Program-made: the position numbers and the translations under genes
DNA from: Longimicrobiales bacterium
GTDB lineage: Bacteria; Gemmatimonadota; Gemmatimonadetes; Longimicrobiales; Gaopeijiaceae
Length of the DNA stretch: 64,000 nucleotides
NCBI GenBank assembly: GCA_963664435.2
Contig: CAXXKM010000001.1
Location: forward strand, 800,001 to 864,000
Reading direction: 5' to 3'
The notes under the pieces: model-generated
Told to the model about the DNA's origin: nothing
What the model saw: only the letters and a program-made list of their open reading frames with translations
Databases searched by the model: none
Shown here: in pieces, positions 21,303-29,032 of the stretch
Position numbering within the stretch: position 1 is the first letter of the stretch
Layout: each line of letters opens with the position of its first letter

Positions 21303-23153
21303 ATGGCTGACCGGACCAACGACTTCGCGTTCAAGATCGGGACCGTCAACGGGACGGGGTCGGCGAGCGCGAACGGCCTCATCATGCAGGCGATCTTCCG
21401 CATGGGAATCCCCTGTACCGGCAAGAACGTCTTCCCCTCCAACATCCAGGGGCTCCCGACCTGGTACGAAGTCCGCGTGAGCGGCGACGGCTACTCGGCG
21501 CGCACCCCCGAATTCGACCTCATCGTGGCCATGAACCCGGCCACCTACGAGCGCGACATCGCCGACGTGCGTCCGGGCGGATACCTGCTGCACGACTCCT
21601 CCTGGCCCATGGCGAAGGAGTTCCTGCGCGACGACATCAACTTCCTGGGGGTCCCTCTGGGAGAGATGTGCGTGCGGGAGTTCAAGGGCGCGCGCGTGCG
21701 CATCCTGATGAAGAACATCGCCTACGCCGGGGCGCTGGCCGCGCTGCTGTCGATGGACCTGGACGTGATCCGCAGGATGATCCGCGAGAAGTTCGCGGCG
21801 AAGCCCAAGCTCATCGGCTCCAACTACAAGGCGATCGAGCTCGGCTACGACTACGCGATGGAGCACTTCGACTGCCCGCTGCCCATCCGGCTCGAGACGA
21901 TGGACGCGACCTCGGACCATGTGCTCATGGACGGCAACACCGCGGCCGCGCTCGGCTGCGTATTCGCCGGGGCGACGGTGGGCGCGTGGTACCCGATCAC
22001 GCCTTCGACCTCGCTCATGGACGGCTTCCAGCGCTTCTGCGAGCGCTTCCGCAAGGATCCTGAGACCGGCGAGCGCAACTTCTTCATCGCCCAGGCCGAG
22101 GACGAACTGGCGGCGGCCGGCGTGGTGGTGGGCGCGGGATGGGCGGGCGCGCGCGCCTTCACCCCGACCAGCGGCCCGGGCATCTCGCTGATGAGCGAGT
22201 TCATCGGGCTGGCCTACTACGCGGAGGTGCCGTCGGTCTTCGTGGACGTGCAGCGGGTAGGGCCGTCGACGGGCATGCCGACCCGGACGCAGCAGGGCGA
22301 CATCGCGGCGGTGGCGTACGCCTCGCACGGCGACACCAAGCACATCGCGCTCTTCCCGGCCAACCCGGAGGAGTCGTTCCACATGGCGGTGGAGGCCTTC
22401 GACCTCGCCGAGCGCTTCCAGACCCCGGTGTTCCTGGTGCAGGACCTGGACATCGGCATGAACGACTGGATGATCCCGAAGCTCACCTGGGACGACAACT
22501 TCGCGCCCGACCGCGGCAAGGTGCTCGGGGCCGACGAACTCGAGCGGATCAAGAAGTTCTACCGCTACATGGATGTGGACGGCGACGGGATCCCCTACCG
22601 CTCGCTTCCGGGCGTGCATCCCAAGGGTGCGTACTTCACGCGCGGTTCGGGACACACCAGCCGCGGTACCTACACCGAGGATGCCGACGAGTACACCGAA
22701 GTGATGGACCGGCTGCGGAAGAAGATCGACTCGGCGGCGAGCGAAGTGCCCTCCCCGGCGATCGAGATGCGCGAGGGCGCCGGCATGGCGCTGGTCACCA
22801 TCGGTTCTTGCGACGGGGCGGTGCGCGAGGCGGCCGACATCCTGGAGAGCCAGGGCGTGCCCGTGGACTACATGCGCGTGCGCGGCTTCCCCTTCGACCC
22901 GCTCGTGCGTGAATTCCTGGACGCGCACGAGCTCAACTTCGTGGTGGAGCAGAACCGGGACGCGCAGCTGAAGAGGTTGCTGGTGACCGAGACCGAGGTC
23001 GACCCGGCCCGCATCCATTCGGTTCTGGACTACGGGGGTTTCCCGTTGAGCGCGGCCTTCGTAGCGGGCGAGGTGAACGAGCGCCTGGGCCTCACGCCCG
23101 ATGACAGGAAGTTGCGGCCGGCGGCGGAGCGGCCGGAAGGAGCGGTGGCATGA
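21303..23153 (+). CDS. korA: 2-oxoacid:ferredoxin oxidoreductase alpha subunit (gamma-alpha fusion)
   Basis: FPSNIQG, WYPITPST, QAEDELAA, TSGPGISLM, QRVGPSTGMPT; substrate specificity not determined. Confidence 0.9.
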   Translation: MADRTNDFAFKIGTVNGTGSASANGLIMQAIFRMGIPCTGKNVFPSNIQGLPTWYEVRVSGDGYSARTPEFDLIVAMNPATYERDIADVRPGGYLLHDSSWPMAKEFLRDDINFLGVPLGEMCVREFKGARVRILMKNIAYAGALAALLSMDLDVIRRMIREKFAAKPKLIGSNYKAIELGYDYAMEHFDCPLPIRLETMDATSDHVLMDGNTAAALGCVFAGATVGAWYPITPSTSLMDGFQRFCERFRKDPETGERNFFIAQAEDELAAAGVVVGAGWAGARAFTPTSGPGISLMSEFIGLAYYAEVPSVFVDVQRVGPSTGMPTRTQQGDIAAVAYASHGDTKHIALFPANPEESFHMAVEAFDLAERFQTPVFLVQDLDIGMNDWMIPKLTWDDNFAPDRGKVLGADELERIKKFYRYMDVDGDGIPYRSLPGVHPKGAYFTRGSGHTSRGTYTEDADEYTEVMDRLRKKIDSAASEVPSPAIEMREGAGMALVTIGSCDGAVREAADILESQGVPVDYMRVRGFPFDPLVREFLDAHELNFVVEQNRDAQLKRLLVTETEVDPARIHSVLDYGGFPLSAAFVAGEVNERLGLTPDDRKLRPAAERPEGAVA

Positions 23154-24205
23154 CCTACATCCCCAAGCCCGCAGTCAGGCATCCCGGCCTCGGCGCCAAC
23201 GAGCTCGGCCTGCACATGCGCGACTACGAAGGCACAATCTCGACCCTGTGCGCGGGGTGCGGCCACGACTCGGTCACGGCCGCGGTCATCCAGGCCTTCT
23301 ACGAGCTGTCCATCCCGCCGCACCGCATCGCCAAGATGAGCGGCATCGGCTGCTCGGCGAAGACGCCCGCGTACTTCGTGGAGCAGGCGCACGGCTTCAA
23401 CGGGGTGCATGGGCGCATGCCCGCCCTCGCCACCGGAGCCAACGCCGCCAACCGGGACCTGTACTACATCGGAATCTCCGGCGACGGCGACTCGCTCTCC
23501 ATCGGCCTGGGCCAGTTCTGCCACGCGATCCGCCGCAACGTCAACATGCTGTACGTGCTGGAGAACAACGGAGTCTACGGGCTCACCAAGGGCCAGTTCT
23601 CCGCCTCGGCCGACATAGGCTCGCGCTCCAAGCGCGGCGTGCCCAACAAGAGCGAGCCCATCGACCCGGTGGCGCTGGCGCTGACCCTGGGCGCCACCTT
23701 CGTCGCCCGAGGCTTCTCCGGTGACAAGCAGCAGCTCATCCCGCTGCTCAAGGCGGGGCTGATGCACAAGGGCTTCGCCTTCATCGACGTGATCTCCCCG
23801 TGCGTCACCTTCAACGACCACGTCGGGTCCACGAAGAGCTACCTCTACACGCGCCACCACGGACACGAGCTCGTGCCCGTGGACTTCGTGCCCATCCGCT
23901 CGGAGATCTCCGCGCCGTCCGACAACGGTGGCCGCACCTCCATCACCATGCACGACGGCAGCATGGTGCGCTTCCGCAAGGTGCCCGAGGACTACGATCC
24001 CACCGACCGCCTGTCCGCCTACGAGCACTACCGCTCCCTGCAGAACCGTGGCGAGGTGGTGACCGGGCTCCTCTACCTGGACCCTTCAGGCGAGGACATG
24101 CACGACGACAACGCAACCACCTCGACGCCGCTGTCAGAAATGTCCCACGAGGACCTCTGCCCGGGCAGCGAGCAGATGGACGCGCTGATGGAGGAGTTCA
24201 GGTAG
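23150..24205 (+). CDS. korB: 2-oxoacid:ferredoxin oxidoreductase beta subunit
   Basis: CAGCG, SGIGCS, HGR, TPP motif GDGD..NNGVYGLTKGQ; ATGA overlap with the alpha gene. Confidence 0.9.
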   Translation: MTYIPKPAVRHPGLGANELGLHMRDYEGTISTLCAGCGHDSVTAAVIQAFYELSIPPHRIAKMSGIGCSAKTPAYFVEQAHGFNGVHGRMPALATGANAANRDLYYIGISGDGDSLSIGLGQFCHAIRRNVNMLYVLENNGVYGLTKGQFSASADIGSRSKRGVPNKSEPIDPVALALTLGATFVARGFSGDKQQLIPLLKAGLMHKGFAFIDVISPCVTFNDHVGSTKSYLYTRHHGHELVPVDFVPIRSEISAPSDNGGRTSITMHDGSMVRFRKVPEDYDPTDRLSAYEHYRSLQNRGEVVTGLLYLDPSGEDMHDDNATTSTPLSEMSHEDLCPGSEQMDALMEEFR

Positions 24206-24220
24206 AGGGAAGGTACTGGC

Positions 24221-25036
24221 TTATTCCTCTCCCGCGTCTTCCATCCGCGCCGGTTTGCGAGTGATGGACTGCTTGAGTGCGTCCAGATTCGCGTTGACGA
24301 CTGCCTTCACCAACTCGAAGTCCGCCTCACTCAATGGGATCGGGATTCTCAGGACAGCCTGACCCCCGCTCATGAGCGGGATATTCAGGTCCCAATCCTT
24401 CGTTGTCGCCGCATCCGTTGACGGCATGGGCCGGTCAGCGGTCCTCGGGCTGCTCTCGGGTTCTTCTGCAGCGGGATCGGGTTCCGGTTCGCCGGGGTCT
24501 GATGCGTCGCTGCCACCCGAAGGCGCATCGCGAACGCCATCATCAAGCAGGTTGGCGAACTCCAGGGTATCCCGGAAGGTAGCGCTGAAGCCGTCGATCG
24601 CCTTCCGATTAAACCCACGATTCGCCAATTCCCATCGAATCGTGCTGTCAGAAGGCAGCCGCCGATTCCCTTCCCACTTGTCCCAAAGCTGCGCGTGGAT
24701 CGATGGAGCCAGCGCCGCTTCCTGACATGCCTTGACCCACTCTGGGTCATCACGGTCCTTTAGCACCAGCACCTTGCCGATGTCCGAGAGCCACACCACC
24801 CGCTGTTGGCCGCTCCCCTTCTCCTCCAAGAGGCCGTAGTGTCTCAGTGCCGCGAGTATTCGTTGTCCTAGACCGCTCCTGCGGGTGTAACCCCAGTGGT
24901 CCAAGACGGTTGCGACTGGGACTTGGTTAAGATCCTCTTTGTTGTAGAGGATCTCAGTACGCCGGATCGCTTCCTCCAGCGTAATCGCCGGGTGTTCCGG
25001 GCTCCGGGTTCTCGTCGTCTTCGTCGTGTCAGGCAT
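24221..25036 (-). CDS. Hypothetical protein, probable winged-helix DNA-binding protein (DUF5343-like), in a lower-GC islet
   Basis: RSPEHPAITLEEAI, ILAALRHYGLLE..VWLSDIG wHTH-like pattern; AAGGAG upstream; codon usage differs from flanks. Confidence 0.55.
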   Translation of the reverse strand: MPDTTKTTRTRSPEHPAITLEEAIRRTEILYNKEDLNQVPVATVLDHWGYTRRSGLGQRILAALRHYGLLEEKGSGQQRVVWLSDIGKVLVLKDRDDPEWVKACQEAALAPSIHAQLWDKWEGNRRLPSDSTIRWELANRGFNRKAIDGFSATFRDTLEFANLLDDGVRDAPSGGSDASDPGEPEPDPAAEEPESSPRTADRPMPSTDAATTKDWDLNIPLMSGGQAVLRIPIPLSEADFELVKAVVNANLDALKQSITRKPARMEDAGEE

Positions 25037-25076
25037 CTCATGTCCCCATTTGCGTTAAGGAGTCGCGCATAGATGA

Positions 25077-25105
25077 AACATGGGATACCTCGGCGTGTAT
25101 GTCAA
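25077..25105 (-). promoter_or_regulatory. Putative sigma70 promoter for 24221..25036
   Basis: TTGACA (25105-25100), 17 bp, CATGTT (25082-25077); back-to-back with the + strand promoter. Confidence 0.45.
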
Positions 25106-25125
25106 GATAGTCTAGCTTGCCGTTC

Positions 25126-25154
25126 TTGACACGGTATCACAGTTTTGCTAAGAT
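25126..25154 (+). promoter_or_regulatory. Near-consensus sigma70 promoter (P1) facing higA antisense and higB sense
   Basis: TTGACA 25126-25131, 17 bp spacer, TGc-extended TAAGAT 25149-25154. Confidence 0.7.
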
Positions 25155-25261
25155 AGTAGTGATCGCAGGCCGATCCGAGACACGTCAGGAGAACATCGAG
25201 ACAGGTGAATCTGCTCCCAACCCTCTTAAGCTGAAAACGAAGGAACTGCGATGTCCTCACC

Positions 25262-25606
25262 TCAAGAACCCAAAGCGTGCGCTGGGTGTGCCTCGGCCTC
25301 TGGATTGGCTAGTGTCTCTATCCGGTCGACTGCGCCAGTAGTCGTCGCTTCGCGCATCTGGTGCCAGAGATCCCAGGCGAGCTGGGCTGTTAGCCAGAAG
25401 CCTGCGGACACGGCGAACATCTTCTCAAGGCGAAGCGCCGTGTCCGGAGTTACGCCTCGGCGCCCGTTGATGATCGCGTTCAAACGCTGGAAGGACATAC
25501 CAAGCGCCTGGGCAGCCTTGGTCTGCGTGAGGCCGTGCTTGCGTAGGACCCTCGCTAGATGCACGCCGGGATGCGTTGGGGGGCGGTATTTCGGCAACCG
25601 AATCAT
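25262..25606 (-). CDS. higA: HigA family antitoxin (XRE HTH)
   Basis: RPPTHPG..L, LTQTKAAQALGMSFQRLNAIINGRRGVTPDTALRL..FWLTAQLAWDLW; RBS AAAGGAAG. Confidence 0.92.
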   Translation of the reverse strand: MIRLPKYRPPTHPGVHLARVLRKHGLTQTKAAQALGMSFQRLNAIINGRRGVTPDTALRLEKMFAVSAGFWLTAQLAWDLWHQMREATTTGAVDRIETLANPEAEAHPAHALGS

Positions 25607-25633
25607 GGAATCTTCCTTTGGGGAATCGCTACC

Positions 25634-25924
25634 GTGATCGCGTCATTCGCCAACAAGGGGACAGAGAATGTCTTCGACGGAGAGAACACAAAAGCTGCGC
25701 GAAAGGTTTGCCCCACGGATCTCTTCCCCGCCGCCAAGGAGGCGCTGGACGCACTGAACTCCGCGATGAGCCTCCAAGATCTCAAGGGCCTTGGGTACGG
25801 ACTTCATAAACTGCACCGTGAGCGATCGGGGCAGCTGGCCATCAAGATCAACAAGCAATATCGAGTCTGCTTCGTTTGGGCTTCCGATGGTCCGACGGCA
25901 GTGGAGATCACTGACTACCACTAG
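25634..25924 (+). CDS. higB: HigB (RelE/ParE superfamily) toxin, oriented opposite to higA
   Basis: MIASFANKGTENVFDG..LHKL..RSGQLAIKINKQYRVCFVW..VEITDYH; GTG start with GGGGA upstream. Confidence 0.9.
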   Translation: MIASFANKGTENVFDGENTKAARKVCPTDLFPAAKEALDALNSAMSLQDLKGLGYGLHKLHRERSGQLAIKINKQYRVCFVWASDGPTAVEITDYH

Positions 25925-25931
25925 GATCCGG

Positions 25932-25976
25932 GTTCTCTTGAGAACGTAGTATAACGTAGCCCGTGCTATGTGTCAA
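25932..25976 (-). promoter_or_regulatory. Near-consensus sigma70 promoter (P2) with palindromic operator-like sites, facing higB antisense and higA sense
   Basis: TTGACA (25976-25971), 17 bp, TATACT (25953-25948); palindromes TAGC-CCGT-GCTA (25957-25968) and GTTCTC-TT-GAGAAC (25932-25945). Confidence 0.75.
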
Positions 25977-25989
25977 AACGGGCTTGCCG

Positions 25990-27492
25990 TCATTCCGCCG
26001 TTGCTTTTCCGTCCCCGTACACGAAGCGCTCCACCTCGCCGTGCACGCGCTCGACCGTGTCGGCCGAGGGTCCTGCGGTGACGCGCGATACGGCGAGGGC
26101 CACCGCGAAGTTCGCCGCGAGCCCCCAGAGCCCGCCGTGGACGCCCATCGGGTTCGGATTGAGCAGGAGGGACCACCACAGGGTGGCCACGCCGGCGGCC
26201 AGTCCGGCCAGCACGCCGGCCTTGCTGAGCGAGCGGCCGCCCGGGAAGCACACCCCGATGATGGCGGGCAGCAGCTGCAGGGCGCCCGAGCCCGACAGGT
26301 TGATGATGCTCACCAGCAGGGCGCTCTCCTGCAGCGCCAGCCAATAGGCCAACCCCAGCAGCGCCAGCACGATGCCCTGGCCGACGCGCACGTAGTGCCT
26401 CTGGCTCGCGTCGCGAACGAGGTAGCGCTGGTATACGTCGCGCGTGAGCACCGTCATGTTGGCGTGCAGGATGGAGTCGAGGGTGGACATGGCGGCGGCC
26501 GCGGCGCCGGCCAGGATCAGGCCGGTGAGCCATGGGGGCGCGAAGGAGAAGAGCAGCTCAGGGAAGATGCGGTCCGCCTGGGCGAGGTCGGGCAGGACCA
26601 GCGCGCCTCCGAGACCGACCAGCGCGGCCGGGATATACAGCGTCATCAGGTAGATGGGCGTAGTAGCCCCCAGCAGCTTGAGCGTCCTGCCGTCCACCGC
26701 CGTGTAGTAGCGGATCATCATGTGGGGCTGCAGGACGATGCCGAAGGACAGCGTGATGACCATCCCCACCCAGATTCCGGGCGTGAAGAGGCCTTCGGGG
26801 CCGGGCAGCGTGAGCAGGTCGGGGCGTTCGCTCGCGACCGCTCGCCACAACTCGAGCGGACCCCCGAACAACTCGAAGGAGAGGACGAGCGCGCCCGCCC
26901 ACACCGCCACGTACATCCAGACGCCCTGCATGACGTCGGTCCAGTAGACGGCCCGCAGCCCGCCGATCGCCAGGTGCACCGCCGCCACGGCCAACATCAC
27001 GAACACGCCCACTTCGAACGAAATGCGCCCGTCGGAGGCAACTTCCACGATGTAGCCCAGCGCGAGGGCCTGCACCTGGATGTAGAGGATGGTGAAGAGT
27101 ACCGAGAACAACGCGATCGCCACCCGCACCGCCTCGGATTCGTAGAAGTCGGCCAGCATGTCCGCCGGGGTGATGTAGCCGAACGTCTTGCCCAGCGCCC
27201 AGATGCGGGTGCCGACGACATAGGTGATGGCCCCGACCAGCACCGTCCACGCCCCGGCGGCCCAGAACCCGATGCCGTGGGTGTAGAAGAACCCGCCCGA
27301 CCCCAGGAAGGCGAAGGCCGAGTGGAAGGTGGCCACCACCGTGAGGTAGAGGACAACGAAGCCGGTGCCCCGCCCGCACAGCAGGAAGTCCTCCAAGTTC
27401 ACCGACATGTGCCGGTTGGCCACCACCGCCACCCCGAGCGTCACCAGCAGATAGATGAAGATCAGGCTGGTGGCGACGACCCAGGTTTCCAT
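25990..27492 (-). CDS. Sodium:solute symporter (SSS) family protein
   Basis: ATFHSAFAFLGSGG, GGLRAVYWTDVMQG, AAAMSTLDS. Confidence 0.9.
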   Translation of the reverse strand: METWVVATSLIFIYLLVTLGVAVVANRHMSVNLEDFLLCGRGTGFVVLYLTVVATFHSAFAFLGSGGFFYTHGIGFWAAGAWTVLVGAITYVVGTRIWALGKTFGYITPADMLADFYESEAVRVAIALFSVLFTILYIQVQALALGYIVEVASDGRISFEVGVFVMLAVAAVHLAIGGLRAVYWTDVMQGVWMYVAVWAGALVLSFELFGGPLELWRAVASERPDLLTLPGPEGLFTPGIWVGMVITLSFGIVLQPHMMIRYYTAVDGRTLKLLGATTPIYLMTLYIPAALVGLGGALVLPDLAQADRIFPELLFSFAPPWLTGLILAGAAAAAMSTLDSILHANMTVLTRDVYQRYLVRDASQRHYVRVGQGIVLALLGLAYWLALQESALLVSIINLSGSGALQLLPAIIGVCFPGGRSLSKAGVLAGLAAGVATLWWSLLLNPNPMGVHGGLWGLAANFAVALAVSRVTAGPSADTVERVHGEVERFVYGDGKATAE

Positions 27493-27569
27493 CAGCGGGT
27501 GACTCCGGCGCGACCACGCGACCGCGCAGGACGGCTACGGGCTCGGCCCTGATCTGCGGAGCGGGTCAC

Positions 27570-27803
27570 CTATAGCCCCCGCCGATAGGCCCAGATCAGC
27601 ACGCCGATGAGCACCGTGTAGACCACGAAGAGGGCGACGTAGAAGAACGGGAGCCCGAGGAAGGTCGGCTCGATCCGGTTCAGCACCCTGTGCGTCACCG
27701 GCGGCATCGCCAGCATGAAGAGCGCGACGAACGCGACGATGGCGATGCGCCCGTTGCGGGTGCGCGGCCGGAAATGGCTGCGGGGAGTGTCGGGCCTGGA
27801 CAT
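27570..27803 (-). CDS. Small 2-TM partner protein of the SSS transporter (DUF3311-like)
   Basis: NRIEPTFLGLPFFY motif; directly upstream of the SSS gene. Confidence 0.75.
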   Translation of the reverse strand: MSRPDTPRSHFRPRTRNGRIAIVAFVALFMLAMPPVTHRVLNRIEPTFLGLPFFYVALFVVYTVLIGVLIWAYRRGL

Positions 27804-27856
27804 GGCGGGCAAGATGCCCGCGAAGAGGGCGGCGGGCAAGCACGCCCGCCCGCCCC

Positions 27857-29032
27857 TCAGTTCAGCAGCATCGGCTGACCCAGCAGCCTGCCCGGGTCGG
27901 CTCCCGGCCTGGGAACGAACTTCTGCACGTGCCCGCCGTTGTAGGAGGCTACGTAGAGGTTGCCCTCCTGGTCGACGGCCGCCTGGTGGGGCAGCACCAG
28001 CCCGCCCGCCCACGGCGGCCGGCCGATCGCTCCCGCCTCGCCGTACGCCCCCCAGGTGTCCTGCAGCCGCCCGTCGCGGTCGTACCTGAGCAGCCGGTTG
28101 AGGGTCGCGTCCAGCACCCAGACGGCGTGGCTCTCGTCAATGTAGATGTTCACCGGGTCGAAGATGTCGGGCCACTCCTCGATGAACTCCCCGTCCTCGG
28201 TAAACACCTGAATCCGGCTGTTGCGGCGATCCGCCACGTAGACGCGCCGGTCCGCGTCCACTGCGATGCTGTGCAGCAGGTTGAACTCCCCGGGTCCGTC
28301 CCCCGGCCTGCCCCACTCCATCAGGTACTCGCCCCCGGCGCTGAACTTCACGACCCGGGTCTTCCAGTAGCCGTCCGCCACGTAGAAGCTCCCGTCCGGC
28401 AGGAAGGCGATGTCGGCCTGGCGCCCGAACACGTACGGCTCATCGTTGGCCCGCGCTTCCTCCATGGTCTCGGGATAGTTCGCGCGCCCGATCTCCATCA
28501 CCAGCTCGCTGCCGTCGTTGGTGAACTTGTAGATCTGCATGCGGCGGTTGTCGATGACCCAGACGTGCCGCTCGGGATCGTAGGGGCTGATGTAGACCGT
28601 GTGCGGCTCGCGCATGATCGAGTCCCACTGGCTCCAGTTCTCGATGATGTTGCCGTTGCGGTCGACCACCACGATGAAGTTGCCCGGGCGCGCCTGCTCC
28701 GCCCAGGGCCGGTCGTCGTCGAAGTCCACCGGCAGGTCGCCCCGGGTCACCACGATGATGCGGTCGGGGTTGTCCACGGCCACGCCTGCGACACGCCCCC
28801 AGGTCCACTCCTCGTCGTGGCTGGCCGCGGCCTTCCACCACCCCTCCACCACCTGGTAGTGACCGGTGCGGTCGTCGCCCCCCTTCGGGCCGCCGGCCTC
28901 CGCGGTTGCGGACGATGCCTCCGGGGCGGGGCCGCAGCCCGCGAAAACCGCCAGCAGCGCGACCGCTGTCCACCGGCGCCGCAATGCCCGCGACCGTCCA
29001 TCGCCCGACGTCTGAAGTGAACCCATCCTCAT
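27857..29032 (-). CDS. NHL-repeat beta-propeller lipoprotein (peptidyl-alpha-hydroxyglycine lyase-like)
   Basis: Lipobox FAGC; YVADGYWKTRVVKF, GPGEFNLLHSIAVD..VYVADRRNSRIQVF. Confidence 0.82.
   Translation of the reverse strand: MRMGSLQTSGDGRSRALRRRWTAVALLAVFAGCGPAPEASSATAEAGGPKGGDDRTGHYQVVEGWWKAAASHDEEWTWGRVAGVAVDNPDRIIVVTRGDLPVDFDDDRPWAEQARPGNFIVVVDRNGNIIENWSQWDSIMREPHTVYISPYDPERHVWVIDNRRMQIYKFTNDGSELVMEIGRANYPETMEEARANDEPYVFGRQADIAFLPDGSFYVADGYWKTRVVKFSAGGEYLMEWGRPGDGPGEFNLLHSIAVDADRRVYVADRRNSRIQVFTEDGEFIEEWPDIFDPVNIYIDESHAVWVLDATLNRLLRYDRDGRLQDTWGAYGEAGAIGRPPWAGGLVLPHQAAVDQEGNLYVASYNGGHVQKFVPRPGADPGRLLGQPMLLN

Follow-up and report, generated by a model that had tools for sequence, protein, structure and literature searches.

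A genus-restricted higA/higB pair kept on opposite strands predicts sign-reversed feedback on the toxin gene

The window analyzed here, 64,000 nucleotides from the genome of a Longimicrobiales bacterium (G000; other Gnnn handles denote compared genomes and Lnnn handles denote loci), carries genes of the HigA antitoxin and HigB toxin families that lie head-to-head on opposite strands. The gene higA (25262..25606, minus strand) encodes a 114-amino-acid protein with an XRE-type helix-turn-helix, which matches TIGR02607 (81 bits against a cut-off of 47.7) and PF01381. The gene higB (25634..25924, plus strand) starts with GTG, is inverted relative to higA and its promoter, and encodes a 96-amino-acid protein of the RelE-fold HigB type that matches PF05015 (34.4 bits against a cut-off of 27) and, as its best hit in the PDB, 6f8s_B (E 5e-11). 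Only 27 bp (25607..25633) separate the two start codons, and this gap holds two opposed ribosome-binding sites, with the Shine-Dalgarno (SD) sequence of higA at 25613-25618 on the minus strand and that of higB at 25620-25624 on the plus strand. Outside the genes, two promoter-like sequences point inward: P1 (25126..25154, plus strand; TTGACA-17-TAAGAT, 10/12 consensus positions), which would read into higB through the antisense strand of higA, and P2 (25976-25948, minus strand; TTGACA-17-TATACT, 11/12), which would read into higA through the antisense strand of higB. The head-to-head layout and the placement of both ribosome-binding sites in the gap had been claimed in a sequence-only reading of this DNA, and both are borne out by open reading frames, family matches and SD-like sites on the two strands; the layout is also kept in congeners.

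The pair lies in a low-GC patch (57-61% compared with about 68%) between korB (23150..24205, plus strand; PF02775), for the beta subunit of a 2-oxoacid:ferredoxin oxidoreductase, on the left and ssf (25990..27492, minus strand; PF00474), for a sodium:solute symporter, on the right. The end of ssf is 14 bp before P2, its direction is that of P2 and higA, and a scan of the 23000-28000 region found no terminator-like site between ssf and P2. Along the site the order is ssf (minus), higB (plus), higA (minus) and a gene for a 271-amino-acid protein (minus), with higB opposing its co-directional flanks; korB (plus) is a possible source of read-through on the plus strand. Misassembly was considered and ruled out by contigs spanning the junction and by the same junction in other species of the genus. 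Single contigs cover 23800-26400 with 0 differences in 2/4 sequencing runs, either of which may be the source of the assembly, and one contig from X5, a run from a second study, covers 25091-25770 and crosses the higA/higB junction. No inversion joint was seen in the contigs of the four runs, which drop rare variants. The orientation proposed from the sequence is thus upheld.

Both genes appear to be maintained by selection. HigB residues H58, D94, Y95 and H96 align with H54, D90, Y91 and H92 of P. vulgaris HigB, which are described as critical for activity (PMC5027501), and are invariant in four species. Across the HigB proteins of the clade, H58 is found in 20/20 and the final D-Y-H in 19/20, the exception being a metagenome protein (P0031) without the last His. 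Pairwise ratios of nonsynonymous to synonymous substitution (dN/dS) were 0.10-0.18 for higB at synonymous distances (dS) of 0.43-0.86, compared with 0.05-0.15 for korB and 0.05-0.14 for ssf in the flanks, and reached 0.04-0.18 for higA (first 84 codons, six congeners). Private changes in higB were skewed to synonymous ones on all four terminal branches (9:5, 7:3, 8:7 and 14:6; p 1e-5 to 0.011 against neutrality), third positions made up 49 of the 76 variable columns, and no frameshift or stop was found in the four species at dS up to 0.86. With a dN/dS like that of the housekeeping genes on either side and its catalytic H/D/Y/H residues retained, higB is, by these measures, not silenced, and purifying selection is indicated for both genes.

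The head-to-head arrangement is not a one-off, as a search of relatives found it in seven genomes of the genus. We found korB in 16/19 genus genomes, and the korB-ssf site holds the intact pair in 4 of these 16 (G000, G002, G007 and G009, representing four species) and the junction with a cut higB in three more: G001 after about 60 codons, G005 after 4 and G011 after 8, the last through a transposase-like insertion. The two genes are on opposite strands in all seven, so that the bicistronic operon that defines HigBA was found in none of them. In the three broken cases it was higB that was lost and higA that was kept, and a lone higB never occurs at this site. Of the other genomes, G004 has only a distant higA (47%), and inspection by eye showed in G014 a short remnant of the start of higA; the site is empty in five and occupied by other DNA in two. 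The intact state is scattered over several branches of the korB tree, which may reflect either an old gain followed by repeated loss or lateral exchange.

Outside the genus, the canonical higB-higA order prevails. The 80 best of 117 genome loci comprise 76 in canonical order, three with no nearby higA and one from a congener; in the 80 best of 369 metagenome loci the canonical order was seen in 76, and four are ended by a contig edge. A family-level set of 30 loci, drawn from 61 genomes that gave a match, has 28 canonical members, G000 and G001 being the two exceptions. One locus flagged as divergent (L049) owed the flag to a weak match (E 0.003) and was counted as canonical on its strong co-directional higA downstream, and L001, whose contig is that of one congener, adds no independent example. 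A DNA match across both genes of the junction was confined to the genus among 401 genomes of the order; no relatives were found in viral contigs and no DNA matches in plasmids. Three called proteins (P0029, P0154 and P0162) carry N-terminal extensions that read through the same gap. The korB-ssf interval of the congeners (L101-L107, L261-L268) is also an insertion hot spot beyond higBA, with contents that include a gene for a 248-amino-acid membrane-protein-like product; G011 has a transposase-like open reading frame there, G004 has two genes unrelated to it, and G017 has a methyltransferase-like gene paired with a nuclease-like one. These labels come from reading the translations, with no family searches.

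The history of the pair can be read from P2. Of 131 regions upstream of canonical higB genes, 84 were used to build an operator matrix with the consensus TAGCACG-N5-CGTGCTA. The 7-N5-7 palindrome at 25950-25968, which overlaps the P2 spacer and -10, scores 16.9 bits with this matrix, more than any other site in the 4.5-Mb genome (next 12.2), and P1 scores below 0 in G000, G007 and G009. This predicted HigA operator is present at P2 in 4/4 genomes with an intact higB, which also have identical -35 and -10 hexamers, and in 0/3 with a broken one. In canonical relatives the 7-N5-7 palindrome likewise lies over the -10 box, with the higB start about 10 nt after it; the architecture of P2 matches that of canonical loci L115 and L121, and the closest HigB relatives use its operator family. 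Because the family operator lies inside P2 and none is found at P1, P2 is, on sequence grounds, the ancestral higBA promoter, with its relation to higA ancestral and higB alone reversed. The earlier idea that HigA controls both promoters is not supported.

As a separate observation, the 7-N5-7 operator over the -10 box is common to a large HigBA subfamily (L002-L043, L109-L137, L150-L229) in which higB is apparently on a leaderless mRNA, its start being about 10 nt after the operator in 53/84 sites. Two more HigB-family genes of the same genome (G000:C2:221302-221568 and G000:C3:1755737-1756000) have a co-directional higA downstream and lack a P2-type operator, and further higA-like genes lie at C1:1139521 and C1:982835.

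The ribosome-binding sites point to the same history. The two SD-like sites are predicted to form duplexes of -5.5 and -5.8 kcal/mol with the anti-SD, and SD sequences on both strands occur in 6/6 congeners scored, compared with 1-2% of shuffled gaps. Where the operator of a canonical locus is no more than 12 nt from the start, an SD is present in only 2/77 cases, consistent with leaderless mRNAs, and among the other canonical loci in 25/54; the inverted higB has one in 6/6. Because canonical loci of this type are leaderless, the SD of the reversed higB suggests adaptation after the inversion, although 25 of the other canonical loci have one too. Most likely, judging from operator and SD sites, higB was inverted between the ancestral promoter and higA and then gained its SD. 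An inverted repeat at the inversion ends, seen by eye, was rejected as not significant against shuffles (p 0.09, 0.24, 0.78 and 0.92). The higB SD is predicted to pair, on its own strand, with the complement of the higA SD, and it is costlier to open than the higA SD in 5/5 genomes, by 0.5-5.0 kcal/mol and by 0.5-0.6 in two of them.

P1 and P2 are the only two promoter-like sites in 23000-28000 (shuffle mean 0.8, standard deviation 0.9). In the whole genome the motif TTGACN-17-TANNNT is found 40 times, compared with 8 times in a Markov simulation of the same length, and 27 of the 40 lie outside crude open reading frame calls. P1 is found at the same place in G007 (10/12) and G009 (8/12), and in the three genomes that keep this intergenic region its hexamers are invariant at 8/12 positions compared with 1/17 in the spacer. 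The inward-facing pair of outer sites was therefore identified correctly from the sequence, and it is conserved beyond this genome; conservation is complete for P2 in the four intact genomes and partial for P1, which is absent from G002. Inside higA and higB, promoter-like sites turned up only as three single-genome cases and none is common to the four genomes, and in G000 no terminator-like site lies between P1 and higB on the plus strand; G007 has one such site inside higA. Because the layout and the inward promoters are conserved and no internal promoter is shared, expression of both genes is most simply explained by long transcripts that cross each other.

P1 stands back-to-back with P0 (25077..25105, minus strand; 9/12), the promoter-like site of the 271-amino-acid gene (24221..25036, minus strand). 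P0 is found in G000, G007 and G009, 65-69 nt upstream of the start of that gene, and back-to-back pairs are uncommon here (5/83 loose promoter-like sites). The encoded protein has no Pfam, NCBIfam or PADLOC family and no clear match by PDB sequence search or Foldseek, and its nearest named Atlas cluster is DUF5343, on 42% of members. Its structural model (pLDDT 75.8) has an N-terminal winged-helix region with fold matches of Z 7.8-8.4 to MarR, the FokI recognition domain and BrxA, followed by a disordered linker and a small C-terminal domain. The dN/dS of the gene is 0.14-0.19, and the protein is a candidate regulator of P0 and P1. Its 23 homologues are patchy in the class (10/251 genomes), with a tRNA-like call near two homologue loci.

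A 128-codon open frame antisense to higA (25251..25637, plus strand) has an SD and an ATG, and its TGA overlaps the GTG of higB (GTGA). The frame is open in 6/8 congener higA genes (closed in G011 and G004) compared with 5/103 canonical ones. A column test gave p=0.027, which is post hoc and concerns related sequences, and openness is expected in 14-25% of synonymous resamplings of one sequence. We rejected it as a real protein gene: it has no family, is not called in the protein collection and has only two homologues, both like antisense shadows of canonical higBA. It may be a translated leader, or a chance shadow frame, and is a weak lead; as a leader it could couple translation to higB and shield the message from Rho. 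There was no Rfam match.

Taken together, we consider it more probable than any other account, and slightly better than an even chance, that the locus is an asymmetric loop built from a cognate type II HigBA pair, in which higB was inverted once in an ancestor of part of the genus and kept working. Starting from the layout, the predicted operator, the SD sites and the selection, all read from sequence, we infer promoter activity, transcript extent, HigA binding, neutralization and interference as follows. Transcription from P2, starting near 25941, would give about 335 nt of RNA antisense to higB followed by the higA message, and transcription from P1, borrowed from the back-to-back promoter pair of the 271-amino-acid gene and starting near 25161, about 470 nt antisense to higA followed by the higB message; from the promoter positions, the two RNAs would overlap by about 780 nt. 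HigA would bind only P2. While free HigA is plentiful, P2 would be off and higB transcribable, with low translation since its SD is folded. Binding of the toxin relieves repression at the operators of GraTA and P. vulgaris HigBA (PMC6393540, PMC7167474); here, HigB would titrate HigA off the operator and P2 would fire, yielding antitoxin only and damping higB through polymerase collision or RNA pairing over the ribosome-binding site, without RNase III. The toxin gene would thus be under feedback of the opposite sign from that in a normal higBA operon, as in a homeostat that favors antitoxin, and strong induction of P1 would be one way to release the toxin.

A more elaborate version is possible, and we put it forward tentatively: a hybrid type I/type II circuit without RNase III, in which the 5' leader of the antitoxin mRNA serves as the antisense RNA against the toxin and self-repression by the antitoxin turns toxin transcription on. 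In such a circuit the toxin message may need ribosomes on the antisense strand of higA that re-initiate at GTGA and open the hairpin of the two opposed ribosome-binding sites, and the winged-helix neighbor would set P1.

Several observations weigh against the asymmetric loop. G002 has an intact higB and P2 and has lost P1 and P0, which means that P1 is not strictly required or that its loss there is recent; korAB read-through could stand in for it. In G009, P1 reaches only 8/12 and was overlooked by the promoter scan, the conservation test of P1 was anchored on the motif itself, and as the mirror of P0 the site may have another purpose. Rho is present in the genome, and both long leaders must escape it. 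The four intact genomes are relatives and not independent, and since the module is frequently lost or broken in the genus (intact in 4/16) its selective value may be modest. Phylogenetic trees resolved no sister group for HigA or HigB and identified no parent operon, and HigA and HigB distances were weakly correlated (rho 0.15, p 0.08); because neither gives co-phylogeny, a cognate origin rests on adjacency and the operator. As an aside on Rho, two matches to its RNA-binding domain exceed the cut-off in one genome (G000:C1:1328457 and G000:C3:795124).

The pair may instead be a working toxin-antitoxin (TA) module whose odd layout is a frozen accident of no regulatory value, which we regard as a serious possibility, at roughly half the weight of the asymmetric loop. 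HigA would then be made from P2 and ssf read-through, higB would be expressed as a trickle from korAB read-through or weak sites, the overlap would regulate nothing, and addiction alone would keep both genes. The frequent loss in the genus, the back-to-back position of P1, which may serve the module of the 271-amino-acid gene, and G002 fit this view: higB is intact there without P1, and no terminator-like site stands between korB and the higA remnant of that genome, one being found inside higB on the opposite strand. Set against this, in 3/3 genomes that have the complete island the spacer and the other intergenic DNA diverge around P1 hexamers that are kept, no other gene lies downstream of P1, and a strong P2 must cross all of higB whatever drives that gene.

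Replacement of the original toxin by a foreign higB, inserted head-to-head beside a resident P2-higA, would leave neutralization possible either way; we consider such a non-cognate assembly improbable. The trees give neither protein a shared canonical sister, only 2/20 nearest neighbors are shared, and the inversion ends carry no significant inverted repeat, all of which fit it. However, the closest HigB relatives share the P2 operator family, and higB is never kept without higA at the site.

Similarly improbable is the classic excludon that the sequence-only reading favored, in which the two mRNAs pair, RNase III cuts them and the outcome is a mutually exclusive choice of toxin or antitoxin. 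The geometry is of the long 5' untranslated region (UTR) overlap type, as described (PMC7154746), with the predicted overlap given above. However, three models gave no RNase III in G000, and the enzyme was not found in 19/19 genus genomes or 66/66 genomes of the class, whereas 14/15 genomes from the other classes of this phylum gave a match, a pattern suggestive of loss across the class; judged from search listings alone, such a loss has no obvious coverage in the literature. Because the enzyme was not found in the lineage, this reading is unlikely and is not supported, which leaves polymerase collision or pairing over the ribosome-binding site as mechanisms, and interference by either is more plausible. 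In addition, an operator lies at one promoter only, and because a protein antitoxin has to be present alongside its toxin, a strictly mutually exclusive switch would be a poor fit.

That the inversion silenced the toxin, leaving higB a passenger and HigA an orphan regulator, had been offered as the simpler alternative to the excludon. An inversion of higB is indeed the likely origin of the layout, and the breakage of higB in 3/7 genomes with the junction and the metagenome variant without its last His would agree with silencing. This is nonetheless very improbable, given purifying selection on every terminal branch, reading frames free of lesions in four species and a retained SD. Least probable of all, higB could be an invertible, phase-variable segment selected in its canonical phase, as a short imperfect inverted repeat flanking it in G002 (8/9 matches) might hint, but this repeat lacks significance and is not shared by all four genomes, a single orientation is seen in 7/7 genomes with no inversion joint in the contigs described above, and no recombinase was noticed at the site.

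By its proteins and predicted operator the pair is HigBA, but it fails the operon definition and would work like a noncontiguous operon. It shares protein families, catalytic residues and an operator over a sigma-70 promoter with P. vulgaris HigBA and P. putida GraTA. A published account describes type II systems as bicistronic, either antitoxin-first or toxin-first (PMC7167474), whereas in this locus toxin and antitoxin genes occupy opposite strands and toxin mRNA cannot arise from the autoregulated promoter. In function, the nearest precedent is Tha-1/Ith-1 of S. aureus phage 80alpha, so that the concept as such has been seen before: an RNase toxin and the protein that inhibits it are encoded on antisense overlapping units, a noncontiguous operon in which the stronger promoter interferes with the weaker (PMC11087260). 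In that system the phage cI promoter switches Tha, an anti-phage effector of the HEPN type, ith has a constitutive promoter and there is no antitoxin operator loop; in the present locus the switch would be the predicted operator of the antitoxin itself, on a chromosome without detectable RNase III.

Other excludons and noncontiguous operons (Listeria, the S. aureus menE operon, E. coli ydfV-relBE and Synechocystis slr1767-ssr2962) likewise have long UTRs across a neighbor or a gene set against its flanks (PMC7154746, PMC12288877, PMC11034616, PMC4963859). In the described TA cases, a whole TA operon faces an unrelated transcript (PMC4963859, PMC12288877), whereas here toxin faces antitoxin, and RNase III is used in the excludon cases covered by two of the sources (PMC7154746, PMC11034616). 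Antisense transcription also acts on protein TA pairs in M. tuberculosis relBE2-asrelE2 and, with aMEF on mazEF, in E. coli, where aMEF acts without RNase III (PMC9325379, PMC8749433); the EcoRI reverse promoters similarly add an antisense layer with the operon kept (PMC3874152). As these same sources present them, relBE2-asrelE2 and aMEF combine a normal operon with a separate non-coding antisense RNA, whereas here the antisense RNA is the predicted 5' leader of the antitoxin mRNA. A head-to-head higA/higB pair was not found described in the literature, judged by titles and the beginnings of abstracts in a search that is thin on subscription journals.

The rearrangement is thus, from comparison of genomes, a real, selected and genus-restricted form of HigBA, and sign-reversed feedback is its prediction. 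Because the unit is shorter than 0.9 kb and has sigma-70-type promoters, it is testable in laboratory E. coli. A cognate TA pair kept on opposite strands over several species would be a third stable layout beside the two operon orders, one that searches for same-strand neighbors would miss or call two orphans. If the proposed wiring is true, one inversion turns a joint toxin and antitoxin loop into an answer to toxin excess that makes antitoxin and silences the toxin. It would also be a natural case of antisense control without RNase III, in a lineage that seemingly lacks the enzyme. Release of the toxin would then be possible by transcription alone, which bears on how chromosomal TA toxins get freed.

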